Shown here: positions 19,855-61,966 of the stretch, piece after piece
Layout of the letters: each line of letters starts with the position of its first letter
How positions within the stretch are numbered: position 1 is the first letter of the stretch
DNA from: Torpedo marmorata
Taxonomy: Eukaryota
Length of the DNA: 64,000 nucleotides
Assembly (NCBI GenBank): GCA_977017645.1
Contig: OZ360225.1
Span: 94,984,001-95,048,000 of the forward strand
Reading direction: 5' to 3'
Notes under the pieces: model-generated
What the model was told of the DNA's origin: nothing
The model's input: the letters and a program-made list of their open reading frames with translations, nothing else
Databases searched by the model: none
Made by a program: the position numbers and the translations under genes

Positions 19855-20070
19855 CCGGCGTATAAGTCGACCCCCAAAAATCGCGATGCCTGAGATGCTG
19901 AGCGTTGACCGGCGTATAAGTCGACCCCCAAAAATCGCGATGATTGAGCTGCTGGGCGTTGACCGGCATATAGGTCGACCCACAACGATCGCGATGATTG
20001 AGCTGCTGGGCGTTGACCGGCATATATGTCGACCCACAACGATCGCGCTGATTGAACTGCTGGGCGTTGG
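19855..20070 (+). repeat. Left subterminal ~60-bp tandem repeat containing the TIR core
   Basis: ccggcgtataagtcgaccc...gcgttga occurs about 3.5 times. Confidence 0.9.
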
Positions 20071-20088
20071 CTGGAGGTGATTGTTATC

Positions 20089-21414
20089 ATGGAGGCTCAA
20101 TTGAAACGACGAAAGTATGAGGCGAGTTTTAAATTAAAAGTGATAGAAATGGCCAAGAAACCCAACAACTGTGCTGCTGCAAGAAAATTTGATGTATATG
20201 AGAAGTTGGTAAGAGATTGGAGGAAGAAAGAAGATACTTTAAGAAAAATACCAAAAAGGCAATGTTCGATGAGAAGAGGAATCACTCGTTGGCCAGAGTT
20301 GGAAAATCATGTCGCAGCATGGGTACGTGAACAGAGGCAAGATTGCTACATTGTCACCCGAAATAAAATAAGAACATTTGCACTGAAGTGGGCAAAGTTG
20401 CACCCAGAACTCAGTAATGATTTTGAAGCTACAGTAGGCTGGAGCAACTGTTTCATGAACAGGAAAAATCTGGTATTACGACAAAAAACAAAAATTGCTC
20501 AGAAACTACCAAAAGATCTTGATCATAAAGTTGTAAGTTTTCACCAGTTTATTTTACGTAACCGGCAGAAACACAAGTTTGCGTTGGCAAATATTGGAAA
20601 CATGGACGAAACCCCCATGAATTTTGACATGATAGGCAATAGAACAGTGGAATGGAAAGGTGTGAAAATTGTGCAAACGAGGAGTACAGGACATGAAAGG
20701 ACCAGGTATACCGTGGTGTTATCGTGCATGGCCGACGGGACAAAGTTAAGACCCATGGTAATCTTCAAACGTAAATTTAAACCTAAAATAAAATTCCCTG
20801 CAGGTATTTTTGTACATTTTTATGAAAAAGGATGGATGAATGAAAATGGTGTAAAACTATGGATAGACAATGCGTGGAACAGGCGGCCAGGCAGTTAACG
20901 CAAGGAACGGAGTTTGCTGGTCTGGGATATGTTTCGTAGCCACTTAACTGAGAACACTAAAAGTAGATTAGCACAACATAATACTTACATGGTGGTTATC
21001 CCGGGTGGTTTGACGTCTATATTGCAACCTCTCGATGTCTGCTTGAACAAGCCATTCAAAGACCATGTGCGTGAAGAGTGGAATACATGGATGTCGAGTG
21101 CAGAAAAATCATTTACAAAAGGCGGGGCAATGCGTGCTGCATCGCTTGATGTGCTGTGTGACTTCGTGCTCAAGGCATGGGACAAAGTGAAAGTAGAGAC
21201 TGTAATAAAATCGTTTAAAAAGTGCGGTATCTCTTGTGCAATTGATGGTACGGAAGATGATTTATTGTGGGACACTGACGACAAAGCTGAAGCTACCTCA
21301 TCAGATACAGACTGGGACCCGTACGATGACTGTTTAAACAGTGAGACCTCGGATGTGTTTGCCGAGATCTTTGCCTCAGACGATGATAGCGAAAGTGATT
21401 TTGAAGGGTTCTAA
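20089..21414 (+). pseudogene. pogo DD35D transposase (Brinker-type DBD, CENP-B HTH, DDE_1), ~441 aa with one in-frame TAA at 20896-20898
   Basis: ORFs 20077..20898 and 20914..21414 are in the same frame. RRKYEASFKLKVI, GNMDET, LVWDMF...QPLD with 35 residues between the last two Asp; acidic tail. Confidence 0.9.
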
Positions 21415-31182: not shown

Positions 31183-31886
31183 CTGAATAATAATGAGGTT
31201 GTGATAAATGTAAAGCTTTTAGACAACAAACAGTTTAACTTCAGATATTTGTGAGTTTGATCAGATGAGATTACATAGAAATGTTTTAATTTTGTCTGAT
31301 TTCATCGTCTGATTTCATCGTCAAATAGTACCTCCGAATTTTGAATTTTATCCCATTCCAAATAATAGACTTTGCTTTTATTTCTTCTACCGAAGTGCAC
31401 TTTTCAACATTGTATTTCATTTGTCACTTCTTTGCCCATTCTCCTAATCTATTTAAGTCTCTCTTCAGCCTCTCCATTTCCTCGTCACTACCTGCCCCTT
31501 CACCTATTTTTGTATCATCTGCAAACTTAGTCACAAAGTCATTTATTCTGCAATCCAAATCATTAACATTGAAAGAAGTGGTCCCTACACTAACCCCTGT
31601 GGAACACCACTCATAATCGGTCGCCAAGCAGAATAGGATCTCTTTATTCCCAATCTCTGTTTCCTGCCGATCAGCCAATGCTCTGTCCATGCTACTACCT
31701 TTCCTGTAATTTCATGGGCTCTCATCTTGTTAAGCAGCCTCATGTGTGGCACCTTGTCAAAGGCTTTTTGAAAGTCCAAATATACAACATCCACTGTTTG
31801 TCCTTTGCCTAGCCTGCTTGTAGTTTCCTCAAAAAATTGCAGTAGGTTTGTCAGGCAAGATTTTCTCCAAAGGAAACCATGCTGAC

Positions 31887-32498
31887 TGTAAGAGCCGTAG
31901 GCTCAATAACTTACCTTAATCGCGGTGCTCCGATGCCTCGACGGGTTATGGAGAAGTTGCGACGTTTTTGGGCCGTCCTCGGCCTGTTTGGTGCTCTGCG
32001 CATGCGCTGGAGTGCCGACGGGCGCATGCGCAGTCTGGAGTGACGTCATTGTGCGCGGTGTAATGTGGGAGATGTAGTATGCACAGTGGAGCGTGCGCAG
32101 TGGAATAGGAACATGGAGCATGCGCGAATCGGAGAGAATAGGATAAAGATGGTGACGTAGGAGGGTGAGTGAGATCGCCATATCTTTATTGACCGTTTCA
32201 TACATCGTTTCATAGCGTTTCATAGATAGATTCATTGAACTTTTAAACTAGTTTATTTGTGGTTTAAAGTAGTTTATTGAACATCTAATACAGTCAAAAG
32301 GAATCATTTAAAGGAACTCATACATCATTTTCAAGAACTGTTTATTTTTATGTCATTGAAGATTACTGCAAGTCACGTGTGTAAATAAAGTTTTTGAAAA
32401 TATTGGACTTTGTTGGTAAATTAATTGAAACGCGTCAAAGACAAGTATCTCACTTAGCCTCCAGGTGACTATGGTTGGATAGAAGTCACCATATTATA
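31887..32498 (+). repeat. 5' LTR of the BEL element
   Basis: TGTAAGAG...ATATTATA; about 13 substitutions against the 3' LTR by manual count. Confidence 0.95.
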
Positions 32499-32948
32499 GT
32501 CAATAAAGGTGGCTGTTTGGAACAGAAAATTGAAGGAAAGAAGATAGAATAATCTCTCTGTGCTTTGGACCGATATTTAAAATAAAATGGTGGCCATTTG
32601 AAGATGACTCGAGGTGGGGGCAGTTTGTAATCCACATCCATCTGCCATGAATAACAGCCAGAGAGGGATTTAAAGCTTGAAATCTTATAGTAAAATGTCC
32701 TATAAATACGTTGGAGAAACCATTTTTGGAAAATCAGTGATATTATTGACGGATGTTGTGGTTGAAACTCGTTTGTGGATAGCAGCACATTACAGTCATT
32801 TGAAGTGGTAGGCATAAGTCTGTGGACTCCTTCTGTGTATCTTTAGCAAGTAAGAACACAGTTTGGAATTGCTGCCGTTGGTCCATTGGGGACTGTTGTT
32901 TGGCTAGTGTTGTGTATGCTTGAAGGACAGAGGAACAAGACGAGTAAA

Positions 32949-35900
32949 ATGGCCGCAGCAGCCTCTGATACAGCAGCTACTGATGTATCAGCAGCTGACG
33001 CAGCAACCGCTGATGTTGCTGTTGAGGACCAACGTATTGAAGACATGAAGATTGCGGATTTTAAAGAAGAATTGAAGCGACTGAAAAAGGACATAAGTGG
33101 AAATAAAAAGGTTCTTATCGCAAGATTGAAGCTGGCAAAGGATGAAGAGGCAGCTTCATTAGATGAACAAGATGATAACTTGGAAATGGCTGAAATTGTG
33201 TCACCAAATGATGAAGAAAATGATGAAGATATTGAAGAGGTTGAAGATGCAAAGGATATACAATTCGAATTGGATAAAGAGGTAAGTATGAAGACAACAT
33301 ACAAACTGCAGGACGAAATACAAGCAAGTGACAGTGTCTCAAATGCTGAAAGCAGGAGAAGCAAAAGAAGTTCTGGTTTGAGCTCCAGAGTTTCTCGTAC
33401 TTCAAGTTCTGCATCGTCACGTACAAAGATTGATGTTAAATTGGCCGGTTTTCTTGCACAACAAAAAACGCTTAAGGATAAATATATTTTAAAACAAGAT
33501 GAGGAGCAGCTAAGACAAAATGAGAAGCAGCTAAAGGAGCAGCTAAGACAAAATGAGAAGCAGCTAAAGGAGCAGCTAAGACAAGAGAAGGAGCAGCTAA
33601 GGCAGAGAAAAGAACAGCAGGAGCTGGAAACAAACATTGCTATTGCCAAGGCAGAAAAGAAAGCAATAAAAGGCTCAATGGTATCTGGTGCTGGAAGTAA
33701 ATTATCTAAATTGTCTGATAATAAAAGGTCATATTTAAAAAAGGAGTCACAGGAAAAGAAACCAACCAAAAGGATAGATATTTTAGAACCAAGGATACAA
33801 AACTTGCATATACAAGGACAAACCTTTCAAGAGCATATTGGTATCGAGTCACATGTACCAATGGTAACATCTGAAAGCAAAGCTGCGGCTTGGGTTCGGG
33901 CGAACGAAGCAGCTTCTTTGTTATTTGAGTCAAGCATCAGAAATATGGAAGAAACTACACCAGTGAGGTTTCCAGATACATTGCATGCAACAAGAGACGG
34001 TGAACAGAGCAATGTATTATCATCCAAGGAAAGACAAAATGAAATTGCTACATCATTGATTCAGTTACAGTCTCTCTCTTCTTTACCCAAGAAAGAGATA
34101 CAAATTTTTGATGGTGATCCACTTCAGTATCAATCATTTATGAGATCTTTCAAACGCAATATTGAAGATAAATGCCTAGATCGTGATGAATGTCTTTATT
34201 ATTTGGAAATGATCACAAAGGGACATCCAAAAGAACTGGTAAAGAGTTGTAAACAAATGTCTTCAGAAAGAGGATTAGATAAAGCTAAGGCTTTACTGGA
34301 ACAATATTTTGGCAACAAGCATCGAATTGCTTTAGCTTATATAGATAAAGCTCTTAAATGGACATCAATAAAACAAAATGATGTAAAGGCTCTGCAAGAA
34401 TATACTCTATTTTTAAGAGGACGTTGTAATGCCATGGAAGATATTGATAATATTCGTGAGCTTGAAGTGCATAGTAATATGCGAATCATCTTAGAAAAAT
34501 TACCTTACAAGTTATGGGATAGATGGAGAAATTTGGCTTGTGATTTACAAGTAAATTATGGTCGAAAAACTACTTTAAAGGATTTGGTAAATTTTCTTGA
34601 ACGACAGGTGTACGTTGAAGCAGATCCACTATTTGGAAATACCAGAGATAATTCAATGGGCAAAGATGTAAGGAAGTCTAATTCACAGCCTAGTCCGAAA
34701 TTAAAATGGAGAACTTTTGCTACTAATGTGTCAGTTATAAGTAAAGAAAAGGACAAAGTAAATAAGGAAAAGGAAAGTTTGCCTAATGAAAAGAGTTGTT
34801 TGTTCTGTAAAGGTGGACATGCTTTGGAAATGTGTTTAAGATTGGAAAAGAAGGAACATAAGGAGAAGATCGCTTTCTTAAAGGAAAATGGAATATGTTT
34901 TAGCTGTCTGTGTAAAGGGCACATCAGTAAAAACTGCGAGAAGCGAATTAATTGTAACATATGCAATTTGAAACATCCTAGAATTTTGCATATCCATAAC
35001 AGAAACAAGGAATTGGAAAAGGAGCAAACAGAAACAAAGGAAACAACAGAAAATAATGTTATAACCTCGGTTCAGACAAGTGGTCTTACCGGGGCCGGTG
35101 TGGATAACTGCAAACTTTCGATAGTGCCTGTACAAGTCAAGACTAAGAAAGGGGATGCAACAGTACAAACATATGCATTTCTAGACCCAGGCAGCACTGC
35201 ATCTTTTTGCACGGAAGGACTAATGAATAAACTTAATATTCAAGGAAGAAAATCAAGAATTATGTTAAAAACCATGGGACAAGAAAAGGTTGTTGAAACT
35301 AACATTGTTTCTAGCTTAGAGGTTGCTGGATTGATAGACAAAAAATGTTGTGATCTTCCAAGTTTATATACTCAGAAGACTATGCCTGTGCATGAAGGAA
35401 ATATTCCTCATCAAAAAGATATCCATCATTTAGCTTATCTGTGGAAGGTTTATTTACCTAAAATTAATTCTGAGATAGAAATGCTGATTGCTTCAGATGT
35501 GCCAAAGATTTTGGAACCACAAGAAGTAATACAGAGTAAAAGGAATGGACCTTACGCTATTAGAACCAAGTTTGGTTGGACAATCAATGGACCATTGGAA
35601 AGAAATAATGATATTGCTCAGGAACAGTTAGCGATAAATATTAATAGAATTTCGGTTGTGAAAGTTGAAGAGTTAAGCGAAGAGCAAAAAACTGTGAATA
35701 AGAAAATCACTTTTGAAGAAAAGAAAACAGATCAATGTGTAAATAAATCAAGGGTATTTAAAACAACATTGAAGGAATTATTTTCACCAAAAATGGATGA
35801 AAGTGAAGTATTAGAAGATCTTGCAAATAATACTATTGATTGTTCATGTGTAATTGAATCAGATACAGGAATAAAACAAGTGACTGAAAACAAATCTGAA

Positions 35901-36758
35901 TGTAGATTTTGTAGTTCAGAGATTACAACAGACAAAGTTAATGAAGAAATATTGCAATGTGATGTAAAACTGGAAAACACAGAAAATTGTGCTGATGGTA
36001 TAAAGAATAATGTGAATGATAATTTAATACAATTGAATTCAGAGAACAAAATGTTGAAAGGGGAATTGGAAATATTAGATAATCATGAAAACAGTCAACA
36101 GAAAGATTTAATTGTAAGTAAAATTTGCAAAGTCAGAAAGCGGAAGAAAAGAATAACTGCTGAAGAAATGAATACAGTTATTGAGGAAAGAGATTCAGCA
36201 TTGTCAAAATGTAAAAGGTTGGAGGAAGAGATTAATGTTTTGAAAGAGAACAAGTTATTGGTTAATAACACAAAACAGTTGACTTTAAAAACCAATCAAT
36301 AATGTAAATTGAATGTTCAGCTATTAACAATGCAGAAAGAATATGATATTGCATTGCAGAAATGTAACAAGCAAGATGAAGAAATTAAAAAATTTCAAGT
36401 TTGCCTCAACAGGATTGACAATGGAAATATCAATGTATCACATGATATTTTGACTTCAGATCAAATTATTAATTTATCGGAAAGAACTGAGACTGAATTG
36501 AAAGTTGCAAAATTGGATTTGGAATTGCAGGAAAGAGCAATAGAAACCAGAGTGGTTAAAGAGACCTGTTTATTAAAATCGAAAGGATCAAATAAATATT
36601 CAAATTCTAGTTCTAAGAGTTTAAATTCTTCACATGAGAAGTGGAATGCTGAAGAAAGGAATAAAGTGAAACGACATGCTGAAGAAGTGCCTCGTGTTAA
36701 ATTCAAAAGAAAAATTTTATCTATTTTGTCTGAGGAAGATTTGAGGTTTACTGGTTGA
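32949..36758 (+). CDS. SAP-Gag-aspartic protease fused to a MIPOL1-like coiled coil (~1269 aa if TAA 36300-36302 is corrected)
   Basis: SAP-like motif IEDMKIADFKEELKRLKKDISGNKKVLIARL; BEL Gag FDGDPLQYQSF; three CCHC knuckles (CLFCKGGHALEMC, CFSCLCKGHISKNC, CNICNLKHPRILH); protease AFLDPGST...RTKFGWTING. ORF 36309..36758 is in the same frame. Confidence 0.85.
33499..33615 (+). repeat. 33-bp coding tandem repeat (EQLRQNEKQLK) in BEL Gag
   Basis: gagcagctaagacaaaatgagaagcagctaaag is repeated, followed by degenerate units. Confidence 0.85.
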
Positions 36759-36759
36759 T

Positions 36760-36980
36760 GTTTTAACTCAAAGATTATGGAGATAAAAGAACTTTAAAGA
36801 GACATTATGATTATTATGGATAATTCAACTTCAAGAAACTCCTGGTTACTTGGAAAAATTATTGAGACTTTTCAAGACAAAAGGGGACTTGTGCGTCAAG
36901 TGTGAATTAAAACTAAGACTGGTTTTCTAAACAGACCTATTAACAAGGTCTGTCTTTTGTTGGAGACAGAGGAACTTTGA
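36760..36980 (+). pseudogene. Remnant of the BEL integrase C-terminal (DUF5641-like) tail
   Basis: DIMIIMDNSTSRNSWLLGKIIETFQDKRGLVRQV*IKTKTGFLNRPINKVCLLLE. Confidence 0.8.
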
Positions 36981-37173
36981 TAAATATAAACTGACTTTAT
37001 TTGTTGTTGTATACTTCACAGGTTACAGACTTTTGTTGATTCAGAGTTATGGTAAACTCTGAGTTTATGAAGAAGGAAGAAAGAAGATTTGTATATTGTT
37101 TGAATGTTATGGTTATTGTTATTTATAATTTATAGTGTAATTATTATTTAAGACATTGTGTCTAATTATAATA

Positions 37174-37185
37174 ATTAGGGGCCGG
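37174..37185 (+). promoter_or_regulatory. Polypurine tract of the BEL element
   Basis: aattaggggccgg lies immediately before the TG of the 3' LTR. Confidence 0.75.
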
Positions 37186-37797
37186 TGTAAGAGCTGTAGG
37201 CTCAATAACTTACCTTAATCGCGGTGCTCCGATGCCTCGATGGGTTATGGAGAAGTTGCGATGTTTGTGGGCTGTCTTCGGCCTGTTTGATGCTCTGCGC
37301 ATGCGCTGGAGTGCCGACGGGCGCATGCGCAGTCTGGAGTTACGTCATTGTGCGCGGTGTAGTGTGGGAGATGTAGTATGCACAGTGGAGCGTGCGCAGT
37401 GGAATAGGAACATGGAGCATGCGCGAATCGGAGAGAATAGGATAAAGATGGCGACGTAGGAGGGTGAGTGAGATCGCCATATCTTTATTGACCGTTTCAT
37501 ACATCGTTTCATAGCGTTTCATAGATAGTTTCATTGAACTTTTAAACTAGTTTATTTGTGGTTTAAAGTAGTTTATTGAACATCTAATACAGTCAAAAGG
37601 AATCATTTAAAGGAACTCATACATCATTTTCAAGAACTGTTTATTTTTATGTCATTGAAGATTACTGCAAGTCACATGTGTAAATAAAGTTTTTGAACAT
37701 ATTGGACTTTGTTGGTAAATTAATTGAAACGCGTCAAAGACAAGTATCTCACTTAGCCTCCAGGTGACTATGGTTGGATAGAAGTCACCATATTATA
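37186..37797 (+). repeat. 3' LTR of the BEL element
   Basis: Direct repeat of 31887-32498, followed by TSD CTGAC. Confidence 0.95.
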
Positions 37798-38182
37798 CTG
37801 ACTTTGGTCTATCTTGTCATGCACCTCCAGGTACTCTATAACCTCATCCTTGACAATCGACTCTAACAACTTCCCCACCACTGATGTCAGGCTAACAGAT
37901 CTATAATTTCCTTTCTGCTGCCTCCCTCCCTTTTTAAATAGTGGAGTGACCTTTGCAATTTTCCAATCCTCCGGTACGATGCCAGAATATATTGCTTATG
38001 GTAAGATCATTACTCATGCCTCCACAAGCTCTCCAGCTACTTCTTTCAGAACCCAAGGGTGCATTCCATCTGGTCGGGGAGACTTATCTACCCTTATTCC
38101 TTTCAGCTTCCCAAGCACCTTCTCTGTGGTGATCGTGACTGCACTCACCTCTCTTCCCTGACACCCTTGAAAGTTCGGTTTA

Positions 38183-48296: not shown

Positions 48297-48525
48297 AAAT
48301 CATGAAAATCTGTAGACACCATGGTTGAAGTAAAAAACAAAATTGCTGGAGAAACTCAGCAGGTCAAACAGTGTATTTTATGTAGCAAAGGTAGAAATAC
48401 ATAACCGACGTTTTGGGCTTGAGCCCTTCATCAAAGCAGCCCGAAACGTCGGTTATGTATTTCTACCTTTGCTACATAACAGACACTGTTTGACCTGCAG
48501 AGTTTCTCCAGTATTTGTGTTTTTT
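48297..48525 (-). mobile_element. Palindromic Penelope-derived mini-element with a hammerhead ribozyme core
   Basis: Inverted arms of ~90 bp; TSD ac(g/t)accaccaacacgt at 48281-48296 and 48526-48541. Confidence 0.8.
48405..48435 (-). ncRNA. Minimal type I hammerhead ribozyme motif (variant)
   Basis: The minus strand reads TTGATGAA-GGGCTCAAGCCC-AAAACGTC; the opposite arm retains GCCCGAAACGTC. Confidence 0.6.
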
Positions 48526-50273
48526 ACTACCACCAACACGTCACATGCGAGACCAGGGGAACCATACACTCGACCACTGCTACACTACCATGAAGAACGC
48601 ATACCGAGCCATACCACGACAGCACTTCAGCAAGTCTGATCACCTGGCTGTACTTCTACTCCCGGCGTACAAGCAGAGACTGAAGACCACAGCACCAGTG
48701 GTGAGGACAGTGAAAGTATGGTCGAGGGAGGCGGACGAGCGTCTGCAGGACTGCATTGAATCAGTGGACTGGAACATATGCAAGAACTCATCCATAGACC
48801 TGAATGAATATGAAACAGATGTCACCGACTTCATCAAGACCTGCGTGGATGAGTGTGTGCCCACGCGCAAATACCAGATGTTCCCAACCAGAAGCCTTGA
48901 ATGAATAAGAGAATTCGCAACCTGCTGAGGGCGAGAACAAGGGCATTTAAGGCCGGGGACCGGGATCTTTACAAGAAGTCCAGTCACGACCTGCGGAAGG
49001 CCATCTCTGAAGCAAAGTGGCAATTCCGGAGGAAGCTAGAGACAGAGACAGATACACGCCAGCTATGGCAGGGAGTGCAGGCCATTACAGCCTACAAAGC
49101 GAGGGCAAACACTATAGACGGCTGTGATGCTTCACTACCCGATGAGCTGAACACCTTCTATGCCCGCTTTGAGAAGAAGGACCAATCAGTGCCTAGTAGA
49201 ATCCTTGAAAAGGCTGAGGACCCTGTGATATCTGTCTCTGAGGGCGACATCAGAACATCATTCAAGATGGTGAACCCTCGCAAGGCGTCAGGCCCTGACG
49301 GCATACCTGGAAGGGTACTGAAAATCTGTGCCAACCAAATAGCCGGAGTGTTCACGGACATTTTCAACCTCTCATTGCGGCAGTCAGAGGTTCCCACGTG
49401 CTTCAAAAGGGCATCAATCATCCCAGTACCCAAGAAGAGTAGTGTGAGCTGCCTCAATGACTACCGCCCAGTAGCACTACTTCTACTGTGATGAAATGCT
49501 TTGAGAGGCTGGTCATGGCCAGAATTAACACATACCTAAGCAAAGATCTGGACCCTCTGCAATTCGCCTATCGTCACAATCGCTCCACAGCAGATGCAAT
49601 ATCGCTGGCTCTCCACTCAGCTCTGGATCACCTCGAATACAACAATTCATACATACGGCTGCTCTTCATCGACTACAGCTCGGCCTTTAATACCATTATT
49701 CCCTCAGTGCTGGTCAAGAAGCTACAATCTCAAGGCCTCTGTACCCTACTCTGCAACTGGATCCTTGACTTTCTCATCGGAAGACCACAGTCAGTACGAA
49801 TTGGAAACAACGTCTCCTCCTCACTGATTATCAACACAGGTGCACCCCAAGGATGCGTGCTTAGTCCACTTCTCTACTCATTATGCACCCATGACTGTGT
49901 GGCCAGGCACAATTCCAATGCCATCTACAAGTTTGCCGATGACACCACAGTTGTAGGCAGAATCACAAACGGAAATGTGGAAGCGTACAGGAGGGACAAA
50001 GATCAGCTCGTTGAATGGTGTAACGACAACAACCTTGCGCTCAATGTCAGCAAAACCAAGGAGATGATTGTGGACTTCAAGAGGAAGTCAGGGGAACACG
50101 ACCCAGTCCTCATCGAGGGCTCAGTAGTGGAGAGGATCAAGAACTTCAAATTCCTGGGTGTCAACATCTCCGAGGATCTGTCCTGGAGCCTCCACGTTGA
50201 TGCAATCACAAAGAAGGCTAGCCAGCGGCTATACTTTGTGAGGAGTCCGAGGAGATTTGTTATGTCACCGAAG

Positions 50274-51175
50274 TGTTACAAATTCAAACCAGCAACGACA
50301 GAAGACGCAATGCAAAAGGGGTAAAATTGAAATTTATATTTATTACATACAATTAAACATATAATTTCACAACAATTAACCCCACTATAAACGTCTATAA
50401 ACACTATTCTTATCTAAAAGGTGTGTGTGTGTGTGTGTGTGTGTAAAGCCCAGACCATTACAGTCTGTGCCCAACCCTCATGTAAAAATGGAAAAACTTT
50501 CCCCAAAATCCCCAGGTCAGTCATAAAAACAAGTCAGTAAAAAAAATAATACAGTCCACAAAAATTCACTCTCTAAGTTCAGGTTCCAAATTCAGCTCTG
50601 TGTGCTGGTAGAAGGACTTCTTAATGAAAGTTGGAGAGAGACAATGACTGTTTACGTTCCCTTCTTGTGTTTTCATAAGGATTGCGAATTCAGATCCGTT
50701 TTGGAATTAAGGCGTATACTTGGATTTCACAGCCGGTTCCTCACAAAAGCTGTTTTCACCACTCAGGATTCTGCCGAATCATCAGGCCCTGTTTTTCTCC
50801 CAGCCTTTTTCTCTGGGATGTACAAGCCTGGACTTTTCTGATTCAAGAGACTCTGTGCTATTCTCCCCAGTTCTTCTCTGGAATGCACAGGCCTGGATCC
50901 TACTGAGTTCTCCCTCCTTTTCAACTCCAAAACTGTTCCTGATTTAGTTTCCTCTTTAGGCCTTAGAGAGAGAGTTTTCTCTGCAGCCTTCTTCCAAAGT
51001 TTCACACCAAGTGTGTTTTTCACAGTTTGTCTCCCCCTGATGTCTCTCTCTGGTAAATACAAGAAGTCCTGGGCAAGTTAGCTCTTTCAGTACCATGTCC
51101 CAGTGTATACTCCAAAAGACTTCATCCTTCCTGCTTACCGTCCGCAGTTCAAACTGTCAGTCATGGTCCATAACA
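50274..51175 (-). repeat. 3' LTR of the Gypsy element (902 bp)
   Basis: Direct repeat of 55294-56239 lacking 38 bp and 3 GT units; PPT (minus strand gtgggtgggagg) adjacent at 51176-51187. Confidence 0.95.
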
Positions 51176-51303
51176 CCTCCCACCCACAAAGAAAATTTTG
51201 GTCTGCAAAAACAAAATTTTAGAAATTGAGGTGTTACAATATAAACAAAATCCACAATGTTCATCCACAAATACAAAATATGAACTATTTTTATTTATAA
51301 AGT

Positions 51304-53838
51304 TTAACATCTAGAAAGACAATCAGCAATTACATTATCTTTCCCTTTTATATGTGTTATTACCAAATCATATTCTTGCAAAATTAGACTCCAATTCAAC
51401 AACCGTCGATTCTTATTTTTCACTTTACAAAGAAACACCAATGGATTATGGTCAGTATACACTATGAGTGGTTTTTGAGCTGTACAGATATAAACATCAA
51501 AGTGTTGTAGAGCCAACACAAGAGCCAACAACTCTTTTTCTATGGTTGAATAATTCCTTTGATGATCATTGAACTTCTTCGAGAAGTAGGATACCGGATG
51601 GTCAATGTCCTCTTCGTTCTTCTTCTGTAACAGCACCACACCCACAGCTTCATCGCTGGCATCCACGGCTAAAGAAAACGGCTGTTCTAAATTAGGTGAC
51701 TTAAGCACAGGTTGGTGGCATAACATGGCTTTCAATTTCACAAATGCTTCCTGACAACCTGTCGACCATACAAATTTCTCTTTCTTTCTAAGCAAATTTG
51801 TGAGAGGGAGCGCAAGATCAGCAAAGTTTTTACAGAACTTGCGGTAGTAGCCAATCATTCCCAGGAACCTCCTCAGAGTGTTCTTACCAGTTGGAACAGG
51901 GAACTCGGAAATAGTCACAACCTTTGCCTCTACTGGCGCCAACTGCCCCTGTCCTACTACATAACCCAGAGAATTAACAATCCCATGACCCTCTCTGAAA
52001 CAGGTTTTATCTGTCTCCTCCTTACCCCTGTCAATAACCAGTACCTCTGGTAAATGTTCAGTCCCTTTGTGTGGCACCTGTTCAAAATATGGCTTAATCA
52101 TATTCACATGACAGACCTGTGTGTCTCGTCTGCGATTAGGTGTTTCTATGACATAAGTGACATCATTAATTTTTGACTTAACTCTATAGGGTCCTGAAAA
52201 TCTAGCCCTAAGAGGATTTCAATGGATGGGAAACAGAACTAATACGTTCTCACCAGGTTTAAAAGTTCTTATCTTAGCCTTTCTATCATACCAAACCTTT
52301 ATTCTCTGTTGAGTGGCCTTTAAATTCTCCTTTGCGATCTCACAAGCCCTATGCAACCGATCCTTAAATTTGGAAACATAATCTAACAGATTTAAATGCA
52401 CATCACTATTAAACCACTGTTCTTTTAATAATCTTAAAGGACCTCTCACCTCATGTCCGAAAACTAACTCGAATGGACTAAAACCAAGTGATTCTTGGAC
52501 AGACTCCCTCGCTGCAAATAACAACAAATGAACCCCCTCATCCCAATCCTTTTCCTTCTCACAACAATAGGTTCTAATCATGTTTTTCAAAGTCGAATGG
52601 AACCTCTCCAAGGCCCCTTGACTTTCTGGATGGTACGCAGAGGATACAATCTGTTTAACTCCCAGTCCATCAACCACTTGTTGGAAAACGCCTGACATGA
52701 AATTACTGCCCTGATCTGATTGAATTTCCCTTGGCAAACCTACCAAGGTGAAAAACTTTACCATAGCCTTTACAATTGACTTTGCTTTTATGTTTCTCAG
52801 AGGAATGGCCTCTGGAAATCTGGTGGCTGCACACATAATTGTTAACAAATACTCATTCCCCGCTTTAGTTTTGGGCAATGGGCCAACACAGTCCACAATC
52901 ACTCTCGAGAAAGGCTCACTGAAAGCAGGGATAGGTTGCAAGGGTGCCACCGGGGGACCCTGATTAGATTTACCCACCACCTGACAAGCGTGACAGGCCC
53001 GGCAAAAGCTTACAACCTCCCTTCTCAAACTGGGCCAATAAAATTGTTTCATTATCTTCCTTATAGTTTTCTTCACCCCAAGGTGACCACCTAAGGGTGT
53101 ACTATGAGCCAAAGTTATTATTGCATCCCTATATACTTTAGGGATCACAACCTGCTGCACTACTGCCCATTCTTCATTGGCAGGAACATCACATGGTCTC
53201 CACTTTCTCATCAACACCCCATCTTTTTCATAATAACCCACTGGCACCTTTTTAATCTCCTCTTCAGAGAGAACCTTATCCCTCACCTCAACAAGATCAG
53301 GATCGTCCTTTTGCCTTGCTATTAGCTCCTGTCGCGATAGTGACAAATCTGTGCCTTTAGGTGTCTTATCAGTGGATGGGTGTAACACAGGAGATTGCTC
53401 AACCTTTTCCAGGTGTTCTTGATTATCACTGACTTTTTCTTTCACCAAGTTATTTTCCACTGCCTTCTCTACAGTGACATTTTTCTTAGACATGGCCCTG
53501 GTTATGGCACATGCTGGATAAATATCAGAGTCTTTCTCTGACTTATCAATGACTGGCTTAGTGGTCATACGCACTTCAGGAACTGCTTTATCTTTGGCCA
53601 AGTCATTGCCTAGCAACAGTGAGACTCCTTCTACTGGCAACTCTAATCTCACTCCTATTATAACAGGTCCTTCCACCAAGTCTGAGTCCAACACTATTTT
53701 GTGCAAAGGAATGGACTCAACATCACCACCAATTCCTTTAATTAAATTTATGTCACCGGTATCAGTAGCTTCACAAAATTCCAAGACACTATCTAACACA
53801 AGTGACTGAGCAGCTCCAGTATCTCGCAAGATTTTCAC
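51304..53838 (-). pseudogene. Gypsy pol: protease, integrase, then only the RT C-terminus and RNase H
   Basis: ILRDTGAAQSL; AHSTPLGGHLG...CRAC; VDCVGP, SDQGSNF and LERFH; GPY; FLGMIGYYRKF, DASD and ADCLSR. No YxDD motif. Confidence 0.9.
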
Positions 53839-53850
53839 TGGAACTTGTTA

Positions 53851-55157
53851 TCATCCTGCCTTAACTGAAACAAAACCATCAGTCACAAAAGGTTTAAATA
53901 CATCTCTAACTTTGTCAGTAAATTTATCTCCTTCCTGGGTGTTATGCCTATTCTCACTCTGAATACAAGCATTAGGTGTTGCATCCTTTTCTCTCTTCTT
54001 TTTCAACACTAGACAACTTGCTAGCATATGACCAGCCTTCTTACAGTAGTGGCAAATGGGACCCAAATGGTTTTCCCTTTTCTACTTTCCTTCATCCCTT
54101 TCTTTAACACCACTTCCAAATTTACTTTCCACTTGCTTGTGATTATCCACAGTGACCTTTTGGAAAATTCTGCCTGACGTCCACTTAGGCTTGTGGGTTA
54201 AAGCATATTCATCTGCTAACTTAGCTGAATTTTGCCAAGTTTTCACCTCTTTTTCATCTAAGTATGCCTTAATATCTTCAGGAACACACATTTTTTTTGC
54301 TCGATTATTATCAATTCTCTCAATTGATTGTAATCATTGTTTACCGCCTTAGATGTGCACCACCGGTCAAAACACACAAACTTTTCATAGGCAAACTCTG
54401 TGTAAGATTGGGTTGCTGTTCTTTTTTAATTTCTAAACTTCTGTCTATAAGCCTTTGGAACTAACTCATAAGCCTGGAGTAAAGCCTTTTTCACCATTTC
54501 ATAATCAGCAGCTTGCTCCGTGGTAAGAGTAGAATAAGCTTGCTGAGCTTTTCCTTTTATTACATTTTGTAACATAAGAGACCATTGGTCTTGTGGCCAT
54601 TTTAATTTCACAGCCACCTTCTCAAAATGTTGGAAGTACTTATCTATTTCTGCCTTTTCAAATGGAGGAAGCAACCTAACTTCTCTACTAGCCAAAAACC
54701 CCTCAACAGGATGACAAATTTGATCTTGGTGCTCTTCTTGTCTCCCCTCATTTTCCAACTTTATCTTTTCCAGCATATATATCCTATTTTTCTCCTCGTT
54801 CTCTAAGTCTAATCTCTTTTGTTCCCTGGCTACCTCCAATTCTAATTTCCTTTGTTCCAATTCCCTGTTCTTTTGTTCCAATTCCAATTTCTTTTGTTCC
54901 CTGGCTGCCTCCAATTCCAATTTCTTTATTTCCAACTGTATGTTTTCAGAAGGTTTACCCTTGGGAAACTGCTCTAACACGCTCTCCTCAAACTTTTTTT
55001 TAATATAGTATTTGACAATTTTTCTCCCAATATCTGCCTTTTTCTTTGATGTTTTTACAGACGCAATGCCCAACTCTGTTGCTATATCCACTAACTGTTC
55101 CTTTTTCACCTTTTTTAAAGTATCAGGTTCAGGTGATTCCAAAAATTCTCCTACATT
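53851..55157 (-). pseudogene. Gypsy gag (frameshifted) with coiled-coil repeats and a CCHC knuckle
   Basis: YFQHFEKVA...WP, AYELVPKAYRQKFR and CHYCKKAGHMLASC. Confidence 0.85.
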
Positions 55158-55276
55158 CATTGTTGCTGGTTTTTCGTTACACAAACATTTGCTTTTAATT
55201 ACCTTTACAAAAGGAATGTCTTAAACCAAACTGGGATTCCTTCAATTACCAAGATGGATTTTTAAATCAAATCCAA

Positions 55277-55289
55277 GGACGAGCCCCCA
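55277..55289 (-). promoter_or_regulatory. Primer-binding site complementary to tRNA-Pro
   Basis: Minus-strand TGGGGGCTCGTCC just inside the 5' LTR. Confidence 0.85.
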
Positions 55290-55293
55290 ATAT

Positions 55294-55438
55294 TGTTACA
55301 AATTCAAACCAGCAACGACAGAACACGCAATGCAAAAGGGGTAAAATTGAAATTTATATTTATTACATACAATTAAACATATAATTTCACAACAATTAAC
55401 CCCACTATAAATGTCTATAAACACTATTCTTATCGAAA

Positions 55439-55473
<35 letters not shown>

Positions 55474-56239
55474 GCCCAGACCATTACAGTCTGTGCCCAA
55501 CCCTCATGTAAAAATGGAAAAACTTTCCCCAAAATCCCCAGGTCAGTCATAAAAACAAGTCAGTTAAAAAAATAATACAGTCCACAAAAATTCACTCTCT
55601 AAGTTCAGGTTCCAAATTCAGCTCTGTGTGCTGGTAGAAGGACTTCTTAATGAACGTTGGAGAGAGACAATGACTGTTTATGCTTACGAATACTTGGCTT
55701 GCTTTTCTTCTCTGATGACGTTCCCTTCTTGTGTTTTCATAAGGATTGCGAATTCAGATCCGTTTTGGAATTAAGGCGTATACTTGGATTTCACAGCCGG
55801 TTCCTCACAAAAGCTGTTTTCACAACTCAGGATTCTGCCGAATCATCAGGCCTTGTTTTTCTCCCAGCCTTTTTCTCTGGGATGTACAAGCCTGGACTTT
55901 TCTGATTCAAGAGACTCTGTGCTATTCTCCCCACTTCTTCTATGGGATGCACAGGCCTGGATCCTACTGAGTTCTCCCGCTTTTTCAACTCCAAAACTGT
56001 TCCTGATTTAGTTTCCACTTTAGGCCTTAGAGAGAGAGTTTTCTCTGCAGCCTTCTTCCAAAGTTTCACACCAAGTGTGTTTTTCACAGTTTGTCTCCCC
56101 CTGATGTCTCTCTCTGGTAAATACAATAAGTCCTGGGCAAGTTCGCTCTTTCAGTACCAGGTCCCAGTGTATACTCCAAAAGACTTCATCCTTCCTGCTT
56201 ACCGTCCGCAGTCCAAACTGTCAGTCATGGTCCATAACA
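55294..56239 (-). repeat. 5' LTR of the Gypsy element (946 bp) containing (GT)15
   Basis: Direct repeat of 50274-51175. Confidence 0.95.
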
Positions 56240-61025: not shown

Positions 61026-61966
61026 CCGTATTTGACGGCATATAAGACCCCCCTTTTTTTCCCCAAAAATCGCCTCAAAAACCACCCCGGGTCTTATACG
61101 CGAAGGTGACATTTTGGTGCCGCCATTTTGGTGCTGCCATTTTGGGCACCGAATGGAGTCCAGGAAGCGGGCCCGCAGCTTCGTGGACCACCTTCCCTTG
61201 GGTGGCCTGTGCTTTCCGGAATCGCCGCCGCTGCCGCTCACTTCCCCCGGTAAGAAGGCTCGCTCTCTCCCTCCTTCCCGCCCGCTCTCTCCCTCCTGTT
61301 CGCTCTCCCCACCCGCTCGCTCGCTCTCGCCCGCTCTCACCCCGCCCGTTAGCTCTCCCCGTCCGCCTGCTCTCTCCCTGCCCGCTCACTCTCGTCCGCT
61401 CTCTCCCCGCCCGTTCGCTCTCACCAACAGTGCTTTGAGGGGAGCACTGGGCCTCGATGATCATCCTTTGTTCGACGAGCACGGACCCTCGAGCAAATTG
61501 AATGAGGCGCGGGGGTGGGTGGCAGTGAGTGAGCGGTCTGTTGAGCTGAGCTTGACAGGCCGCTCGCTCACTGCCACCCACCCCCGCGCCTCATTCAATC
61601 TGTTCGGGGGCCGTGTGTGTCGAACAAAGGCTCAGCATGGAGCCTGATCACCGAAGCCTAGCGCTCCCCTCAAAGCAAGTGATCGATCGTCTGCTCCCCG
61701 CGACGGTGGGCCTGGGCCCTTCCCGTTGTCCTGGCTTCTCTCCCTCCCACCCTCGCGCGCCCGCAGGTCCCGGCACACCTGTCAATCAATTCGCGTTTGG
61801 ACGGTAGGGGGGAAGCAGCCTGAGCCTCGGTGTGCAGCGGGCAGGAGGACGTGTTGCTGCTGTGAAGGTAAATATACTAAAACAAATTTTTCCTGAAATC
61901 TCACGCTAAAAATGGGAGGGGGGGGGGTCCTATATGCCAGTGGGTCCTATTTGACGACAAATACGG
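61026..61966. mobile_element. pogo-type MITE with a GC-rich interior and a large internal hairpin
   Basis: TA|ccgtatttgacggcatataagaccc ... gggtcctatttgacgacaaatacgg|TA; the TIR is related to that of the element at 19774. Confidence 0.85.

Follow-up and report, generated by a model that had tools for sequence, protein, structure and literature searches.

A non-autonomous BEL/Pao retrotransposon family of Torpedo marmorata with an in-frame cassette of BRCA1, MIPOL1 and Elongin A sequence and a MIPOL1 back-splice junction

Results

A BEL/Pao element with pieces of three host genes behind Gag-protease

The window analysed here is a stretch of 64,000 nucleotides from the ray Torpedo marmorata (assembly GCA_977017645.1, contig OZ360225.1, positions 94,984,001 to 95,048,000 of the forward strand), and all positions refer to it unless a contig is named. 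The element at 31887-37797 is a BEL/Pao long terminal repeat (LTR) retrotransposon and a non-autonomous derivative of that group (Table 1). Its LTRs match at 599 of 612 nt (2.1% divergence) and carry the target-site duplication (TSD) CTGAC on both sides, in line with an initial annotation that had been made from the letters of the window. From 32847 on, a single frame covers SAP, DUF1759 and, as a weak match, an aspartyl protease before a TAA interrupts it at 36300; it resumes over 36303-36755. The initial annotation had also stated that no reverse transcriptase (RT), RNase H or integrase core follows SAP-Gag-protease; the Pfam scan of the element indeed found none of these, and only a DUF5641 remnant below the Pfam cut-off was left at 36825-36902 (E 0.023). 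Copies of the family fall into two subfamilies: B, to which the window copy belongs, and A, which is older and retains the capture described below at 93-96% identity to host MIPOL1. Three autonomous copies (L124-L126) with frames of 2,033-2,047 codons, LTR pairs of 98.9-99.8% identity and the LTR termini of the window copy provide the partners that the initial annotation had suggested looking for, and the one helper scanned with Pfam carried all Pao domains in the order Gag, protease, RT, RNase H (Peptidase_A17) and integrase. Termini of the form TG...CA are absent from the window copy and found in subfamily A, and TG...TA occurs also in all three young intact helpers; TG...TA ends are thus a lineage trait, not a defect of the window copy. 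The presence of TG...TA in young intact BEL/Pao copies and in subfamily B suggests an altered end recognition by the integrase of the helper lineage.

Homology between the window copy and the helpers ends at 35687 and restarts at 36799. The intervening insert had been read as a MIPOL1-like host segment with an almost ungapped alignment, and this identification of MIPOL1 was right: read with X at position 36300, the insert matches 190 proteins at E<=0.001, the best being sawfish MIPOL1 (E 3.7e-28), while the top three MIPOL1 proteins are all batoid and 60 of 100 residues are identical in stingray MIPOL1. Yet only ~450 of the ~1,090 insert bases are MIPOL1, with its exons out of gene order, and the rest is BRCA1 and Elongin A (ELOA). 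Pfam gave nothing significant for the insert of the window copy, and the donor genes were named by sequence searches only. Less diverged relatives, obtained by searching the genome with sawfish MIPOL1, were used to identify the flanks of the MIPOL1 part. In these relatives BRCA1 (77% identity to a batoid BRCA1, E 3e-61) lies on the 5′ side and Elongin A (PF06881 in Pfam, E 1.8e-14) on the 3′ side, with 136 genomic Elongin A matches among the 150 scored. Host BRCA1 is a single locus on contig C61, its stretch being 84% identical to the Narcine protein, and at least two of its exons are joined in the elements; at least four host ELOA exons, from contig C41, are joined without introns at 91-99% identity. 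With six exon pieces of MIPOL1, all three genes are represented by intronless partial exons inside an LTR element. Taken together, BRCA1, MIPOL1 and Elongin A RNAs form an in-frame mosaic in the place of the RT-RNase H-integrase core. The proposal that a spliced host mRNA had been transduced therefore stands for the spliced host RNA; the number of genes is three, and a back-splice in the MIPOL1 part points to a circular RNA.

The switch points at the BRCA1/MIPOL1 and MIPOL1/ELOA joints were compared with host sequence, and loci were compared by local alignment. The BRCA1/MIPOL1 joint has a 2-nt microhomology, and the MIPOL1/ELOA joint of subfamily A carries a 16-of-17-nt match to the 5′ end of the A-type LTR, which fits an end-to-end template jump, an integration into a passenger cDNA, or an LTR inserted into exon d in an ancestor. 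Upstream ELOA sequence was considered as the source of this filler and rejected, the filler being absent from the stretches examined (22.5 kb for ELOA, ~13 kb for BRCA1). An alternative isoform skipping ELOA exon 2 was likewise rejected, since that exon is 115 nt long and the loss is a 111-nt in-frame deletion.

Three observations concern the donor genes themselves. Host BRCA1 (L176, on C61) lacks 9 nt that are present in the elements and in the Narcine protein P0122, indicating that the host gene changed after the capture. The public model P0122 has no RING match in Pfam and aligns over its first ~175 residues with an unrelated repeat in L138, so its start is probably mis-annotated. Besides the donor on C41 there is a second intron-containing gene with an Elongin_A domain (G000:C25:175318134-175337048).

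Table 1. Coordinates of the BEL/Pao element and its parts in the window
Feature	Position	Strand	Remarks
Left TSD, CTGAC, 5 bp	31882-31886	+	right copy 37798-37802
5′ LTR	31887-32498	+	termini TG...TA as in young helpers; TG...CA in older subfamily A
Leader	32499-32948	+	young autonomous BEL/Pao copies match at 92-95% identity
Gag (SAP, DUF1759) and protease	32949-35682	+	92-99% identity to young helpers until ~35490
Spliced BRCA1 fragment	35683-36111	+	spans the end of one exon and the beginning of the large central one; C61 holds the host gene
MIPOL1 arc	36104-36554	+	3′ part of exon f, then g and h; after the back-splice, the 5′ part of exon b, then c
MIPOL1 junctions f/g and g/h	~36210; ~36315	+	computed from the segment map
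TAA private to the window copy	36300-36302	+	1 of 30 close copies
Back-splice junction	36409-36410	+	links the donor of host exon h with the acceptor of exon b, which lies upstream in the host gene
Spliced Elongin A (ELOA) fragment	36554-36775	+	Elongin_A (BC-box) domain of subfamily A lost here
End of the 1,282-codon fusion frame	36795-36797	+	stop in 30 of 30 close copies
Integrase C-terminal (DUF5641) remnant	36799-36980	+	same frame; 91-98% identity to young helpers
Purine-rich tract adjoining the 3′ LTR	37177-37185	+	polypurine tract by position
3′ LTR	37186-37797	+	AATAAA at 37683

The MIPOL1 piece contains a back-splice junction

Host MIPOL1 was mapped across 320 kb of contig C40, where each of the exons b to i occurs once, flanked by AG and GT. 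The elements carry exon f from base 48, exons g, h, b and c, and 17-18 bases of exon d, in total 587 nt. Both ends of this arc lie within exons, and its start at f:45-48 in 29 of 29 A copies marks a shared switch point. The joint from h to b coincides with the genomic donor of exon h; exon b has a tandem acceptor, and the joint uses its upstream AG. It is ungapped in all 59 copies compared, with at most 2 mismatches in 24 nt in 28 of the 29 A copies (12 exact) and 6-9 mismatches in the 30 B copies. Exons b-h total 780 nt and form one frame without a stop over three turns of a circle, and this accounts for the scrambled arc being in frame; the arc itself is shorter than one full turn (587 of 780 nt). 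Only circle-resident MIPOL1 exons were found in the elements: exon i has one genomic match, and in a stricter search with residues 25-210 the host locus was the sole match to that part among the 130 matches listed.

The ordinary exon order was seen elsewhere. Three other batoid MIPOL1 proteins are colinear, and a contig under another organism label shows the order a-b-c-d-e-f and h-i; the linear-order contig of that label has 191 letters between d:18 and f, matching the exon model. The loose end of this one contig suggests that the mRNA uses the downstream AG at exon b, and on that basis the element junction looks made by the spliceosome, not copied from mature mRNA. Contigs from four sequencing runs contain linear host mRNA and cassette junctions, and are uninformative on expression level, strand and circle. 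The back-spliced exon order points to a 780-nt circular RNA (circRNA) of exons b-h as the template, and a circular template is both the simplest reading and, in our judgement, a likely one.

Further MIPOL1 arrangements were noted in single copies. Residues 367-469 occur twice in tandem before the back-splice at G000:C42:9563985-9564968, and the junction 24-mer occurs twice, 53 nt apart, at G000:C40:106864448-106864524. Four subfamily-B copies lie within introns of host MIPOL1 itself (G000:C40:64323001-64643000; L062-L093).

An old cassette on a young helper backbone

Copy numbers were obtained from whole-genome counts of 22-mers and junctions, which are floors with differing mismatch limits; reversed-pattern controls gave 0. 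There are at least 21,227 copies of subfamily B (B-specific 22-mer, <=1 mismatch), at least 692 of subfamily A (A-type junction, <=2 mismatches) and at least 25,690 MIPOL1 carriers altogether (22-mer common to A and B, <=2 mismatches), against at least 963 of the pol-bearing helper lineage (pol 22-mer, <=1 mismatch), that is, ~22 B copies per pol-bearing helper. These large counts agree with the earlier proposal that the chimera was mobilised in trans as a family. The tandem array at G000:C1:1498045-1517922 holds five B-type matches at an exact period of 4,964 nt.

The cassette and its backbone differ in age. In subfamily B the cassette is ~17% diverged and has ~80-84% identity to host exons, and the LTR pairs are 96.4-99.0% identical in 5 of 5 full copies, against 88-94% in A (7 of 12 copies with a true pair recovered). 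The leader and Gag of B have 92-99% identity to helpers versus 70-81% to A, with switches near 35490 and near 36790; the final ~200 nt of the Gag-protease segment, up to 35682, group with the older cassette. An old cassette is mounted on a young helper backbone, from which we infer recombination with a helper. Six extra copies (five off the B-specific list and one with shorter spacing) were all B variants with 94-97% identity to the window copy. Cassette junctions also appear in contigs under two other organism labels, possibly from DNA; one such contig spans the BRCA1/MIPOL1 joint and the back-splice with a deletion of its own, and the other shows the B-type 120-nt joint.

Selection maintains the reading frame

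Before counting, seven poor alignments (BRCA1 L038, L039, L043, L156 and L171; ELOA L033 and L157), six duplicate ELOA loci, insertions of more than 100 nt and sites within 4 nt of gaps were dropped. The A loci were the best protein matches and the B loci were chosen by DNA identity; the choice of A loci is therefore biased against stops (32 private stops versus 45.7 expected). Among 30 close B copies, 18 have neither stops nor frameshifts over 35685-36755, 17 have a stop at 36756, and all have the stop at 36795. The stop at 36300, which the initial annotation had described, is present and private to the window copy. Indels found in at least three copies were mostly in frame, with 8 of 9 in A compared with 29 of 133 private ones (p 8e-5), and 6 of 7 in B compared with 2 of 15 (p 0.002); in both subfamilies the shared indels that break the frame are insertions of one base, each found in three copies. 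Deletions that span junctions, of 120, 195 and 273 nt, are all in frame, and an in-frame 24-nt variant occurs in 11 of 70 pairs on contig C1. The ELOA BC-box domain of A is kept in frame under shared deletions of 111 and 291 nt, and MIPOL1 exons f-g-h have lost just 3 nt in B.

Changes on the B branch were counted at sites where most A copies equal the host, by a counting estimate without multiple-hit correction. There were 104 nonsynonymous and 36 synonymous changes, versus 98.3 and 33.9 expected from the substitution spectrum, and the dN/dS ratio (omega) of the whole insert was 1.00 (0.69-1.53). By gene, omega was 0.81 for BRCA1, 1.55 (0.88-3.39) for MIPOL1 and 0.59 for ELOA, every interval spanning 1; for MIPOL1 exons f-g-h it was 1.50 (0.77-4.29). 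No real internal stop was fixed on this branch, versus 8.8 expected (P 1e-4), the lone single-site call being in a doubly changed codon. As a control, the same method gave an omega of 0.52 (P<0.001) for Gag-protease between A and B or helper, and 1.03 for private changes. The B-specific changes in Gag-protease number only 16 (omega 0.97) and so give no power to show that B's own protein is needed. Changes towards A/T outnumber the opposite by 108 to 21 on the B branch, which accounts for the AT-richness of the insert that had been remarked on earlier.

Overall, selection maintains the reading frame and not the amino-acid sequence. The initial annotation, which had called for dN/dS among copies and against the host, had expected the fusion to be maintained, perhaps as a MIPOL1 accessory or decoy protein; the frame is kept open as expected, but no amino-acid constraint was found on the B branch, and selection on the frame with omega near 1 argues against a MIPOL1 decoy.

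Other features of the window

A second LTR element lies at 50274-56011 on the reverse strand, with repeats of 97-99% identity ~5 kb apart and broken gag/pol frames; from its motifs we take it to be Gypsy-like. At 19855-21414 a 54-nt tandem repeat adjoins a split transposase-like frame, presumably of the pogo/Tigger type. Long near-perfect inverted repeats at 48322-48535 and 61486-61610 (arms of 98 nt and 62 nt) are probably similar to miniature inverted-repeat transposable elements.

Discussion

The copies in this genome demonstrate the capture of several host genes by one LTR element, a back-splice junction within it, amplification far beyond its helper, and selection confined to the reading frame. 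For the history behind them we consider it reasonably probable that MIPOL1 was captured from a template circle, that the chimera was copied in trans and moved to another backbone, and that the cassette serves as a translated spacer in cis. A BEL/Pao element lost RT, RNase H and integrase and gained the spliced BRCA1, MIPOL1 and ELOA pieces in one frame behind Gag-protease; the gain probably occurred through template switches of the RT between co-packaged RNAs, with the 780-nt circle of exons b-h as the putative MIPOL1 template. Copied in trans by autonomous relatives, this chimera would have given rise to subfamily A. The cassette would then have shed in-frame blocks, drifted by ~17% and recombined onto a newer helper backbone that brought its own leader, Gag and integrase tail together with TG...TA LTRs; the re-mounted chimera would have expanded to more than 21,000 copies as subfamily B.

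As a translated spacer the cassette may act, for example, against the decay of RNAs with long 3′ untranslated regions (UTRs). With the stop at 36795 and AATAAA at 37683 the 3′ UTR is ~0.9 kb, close to the ~0.7 kb of the helper; were translation to end behind the protease, it would be ~2 kb long, which might expose the RNA to nonsense-mediated decay (NMD) or to poor packaging with its own Gag. According to the sections cited here, long 3′ UTRs raise the likelihood of NMD, which Rous sarcoma virus has to counter with a stability element (PMC5031192). Any stop-free sequence would serve; a captured coding RNA would supply it, and an in-frame circle would be stop-free from any entry point. In subfamily A, the ELOA frame extends past the integrase remnant towards the LTR.

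Several points weigh against this history. The omega interval allows mild constraint (0.69) or positive selection. Changes shared by the A copies have an omega of 0.78 as a pooled point estimate, and of 0.51 in the ELOA BC-box domain, where 7 nonsynonymous and 6 synonymous changes versus 8.7 and 3.8 expected is not significant. Of the eight in-frame indels in A, two occur in essentially every A copy and could be changes on the host side. None of the 6 extra copies from this genome proved to be a cassette intermediate between A and B, and a present-day circMIPOL1 was not seen, no junction contig among those listed entering host-only exons. Ty1 minis can move after deletions of up to 5 kb and without an open reading frame (ORF), in the part of the source cited (PMC4974528), so that a requirement for an open frame would be specific to the host or the family. 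Finally, a protein tail selected for its length alone would fit the sequence evidence equally well.

Such a tail of any sequence could stand in for RT-integrase behind Gag-protease, in folding, in protease timing or in co-assembly with the helper. The same in-frame indels and stops would be expected from it, the BEL/Pao helpers use one ORF of ~2,040 aa in which the protease is normally internal, and the protease DPG motif is retained in 26 of 29 close B copies and 15 of 18 A copies. We nevertheless regard selection on length as unlikely, given a tail repeatedly shortened by hundreds of bases and 16 B-specific changes in Gag-protease that lack the power to show a need for its own protein. Less probable still is a peptide of MIPOL1, BRCA1 or ELOA released by the protease as an accessory or decoy, the BC-box of A then possibly recruiting Elongin BC. 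The loss of just 3 nt from f-g-h in B, the BC-box kept in frame in A with its shared-change omega of 0.51, and a MIPOL1 omega above 1, which could be diversifying selection, speak for it. But the purifying selection on amino acids that it calls for is missing from f-g-h and from the pooled insert alike, the BC-box counts are not significant, and the subfamily without the BC-box is ~30 times larger; a decoy would fit the sequence data poorly. Neutral hitch-hiking, with a frame left open by chance in a few master copies, could be reconciled with omega near 1 and few master lineages, yet the absence of fixed stops where 8.8 were expected and the in-frame deletions that arose independently in several sublineages of A and of B, where only 13-22% of private indels are in frame, make it very improbable, and it is strongly disfavoured.

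The remaining alternative concerns origin only, and here a linear template would replace the circle: the scrambled MIPOL1 order might derive from trans-splicing, from a lost tandem duplication of exons b-h, or from a read-through transcript of an allele whose exon d had received an LTR. An arc of less than one turn would suit it, as would the end of the A arc 17 nt into exon d on the LTR-like 16-of-17-nt match, which is absent from the host ELOA and BRCA1 stretches examined, and Dong et al. name other routes to non-colinear junctions in the portion cited (PMC4897178). Against it stand host exons that are single-copy over 320 kb with exon d intact, the three colinear batoid proteins and the contig in ordinary exon order, and an LTR in exon d would be compatible with a circle as well. 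We hold a linear template to be improbable and retain the circular one. The junction by which circRNA-derived retrocopies are recognised, a non-colinear exon joint at genomic splice donor and acceptor, is present here, and more than one turn is not required by Dong et al. in the same portion of their paper (PMC4897178).

Beyond this history, a wider set of consequences is offered tentatively, as possible but less likely than not: that a host circRNA was reverse-transcribed in a particle, that captured coding RNA is a stop-free shield against decay, that the cassette passed between helper backbones, that the Elongin A BC-box displayed by the first form may have recruited Elongin BC, and that ~25,000 copies may feed small RNAs onto BRCA1, MIPOL1 and ELOA.

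Parts of this arrangement have precedents. TR-GAG elements, described in plants, keep Gag with or without protease, have lost RT and integrase and are moved in trans; we know of no captured host cassette in them or in other Gag-retaining non-autonomous LTR elements. The family analysed here can also be set beside elements that did capture host sequence. Maize Bs1 (Elrouby and Bureau) is an LTR element with partial exons of three cellular genes (PMC5131818, PMC5408686), and shares with the ray element a hybrid ORF of three cellular genes, shared switch points and secondary retroposition; as far as the cited passages go, Bs1 has 1-5 copies per genome and no reported circular template, whereas the ray element is an animal BEL/Pao element with more than 21,000 copies, frame-only selection at omega near 1 and a swap of helper backbone. 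Tan et al. (2016) described metazoan LTR-mediated retrocopies, including a four-gene mouse chimera and one mosquito BEL example, which resemble the ray element in their partial mRNAs within LTR elements, microsimilarity at switch points and multi-gene chimeras; the term 'circular' is missing from their main text, and the passages cited contain no case at this copy number and report loss-of-function changes in most older cases, 14 of 21 (PMC5131818). At the junction the element resembles the circRNA-derived pseudogenes of mouse circRFWD2, which number 33-42 copies and for which Dong et al. (2016) did not settle on a mechanism, with a non-colinear exon junction in genomic copies, LTR-rich flanks and no poly(A); in the portion cited they have no gag fusion, while the ray arc lies in frame within an LTR element with a known helper and ~25,000 copies (PMC4897178). 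The literature searched, which covered subscription journals and repeat databases only in small part, contained no circMIPOL1 paper and no back-splice junction with an LTR retrotransposon, and listings for MIPOL1 with retrotransposon (titles only) and for cartilaginous BEL Pao (15 of 22 listed) held nothing relevant. As far as that literature goes, a back-spliced RNA inside a Gag-protease frame with an identified helper is new, and so are ~25,000 copies versus 1-42, the transfer of a module between backbones, and the split between frame and protein selection.

The family supplies the link that the cited portion of the circRNA-pseudogene paper leaves open (PMC4897178): a back-splice inside an LTR element, with a helper, mid-exon switches and an LTR-end footprint. 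It is a large natural sample in which frame selection is separated from protein selection, and it warns that a captured gene with a long ORF does not necessarily encode an accessory protein. Elements with BRCA1, MIPOL1 and ELOA fragments make up at most ~125 Mb, or 2% of the genome, an upper bound that takes all 21,227 copies as full length, and in these rays the copies will interfere with the annotation of genes, the mapping of RNA and the calling of circRNAs. If a host circRNA was indeed reverse-transcribed, the cassette would be the most amplified circRNA fossil known to us. The family also makes it testable whether decay surveillance shapes the non-autonomous LTR elements of vertebrates.

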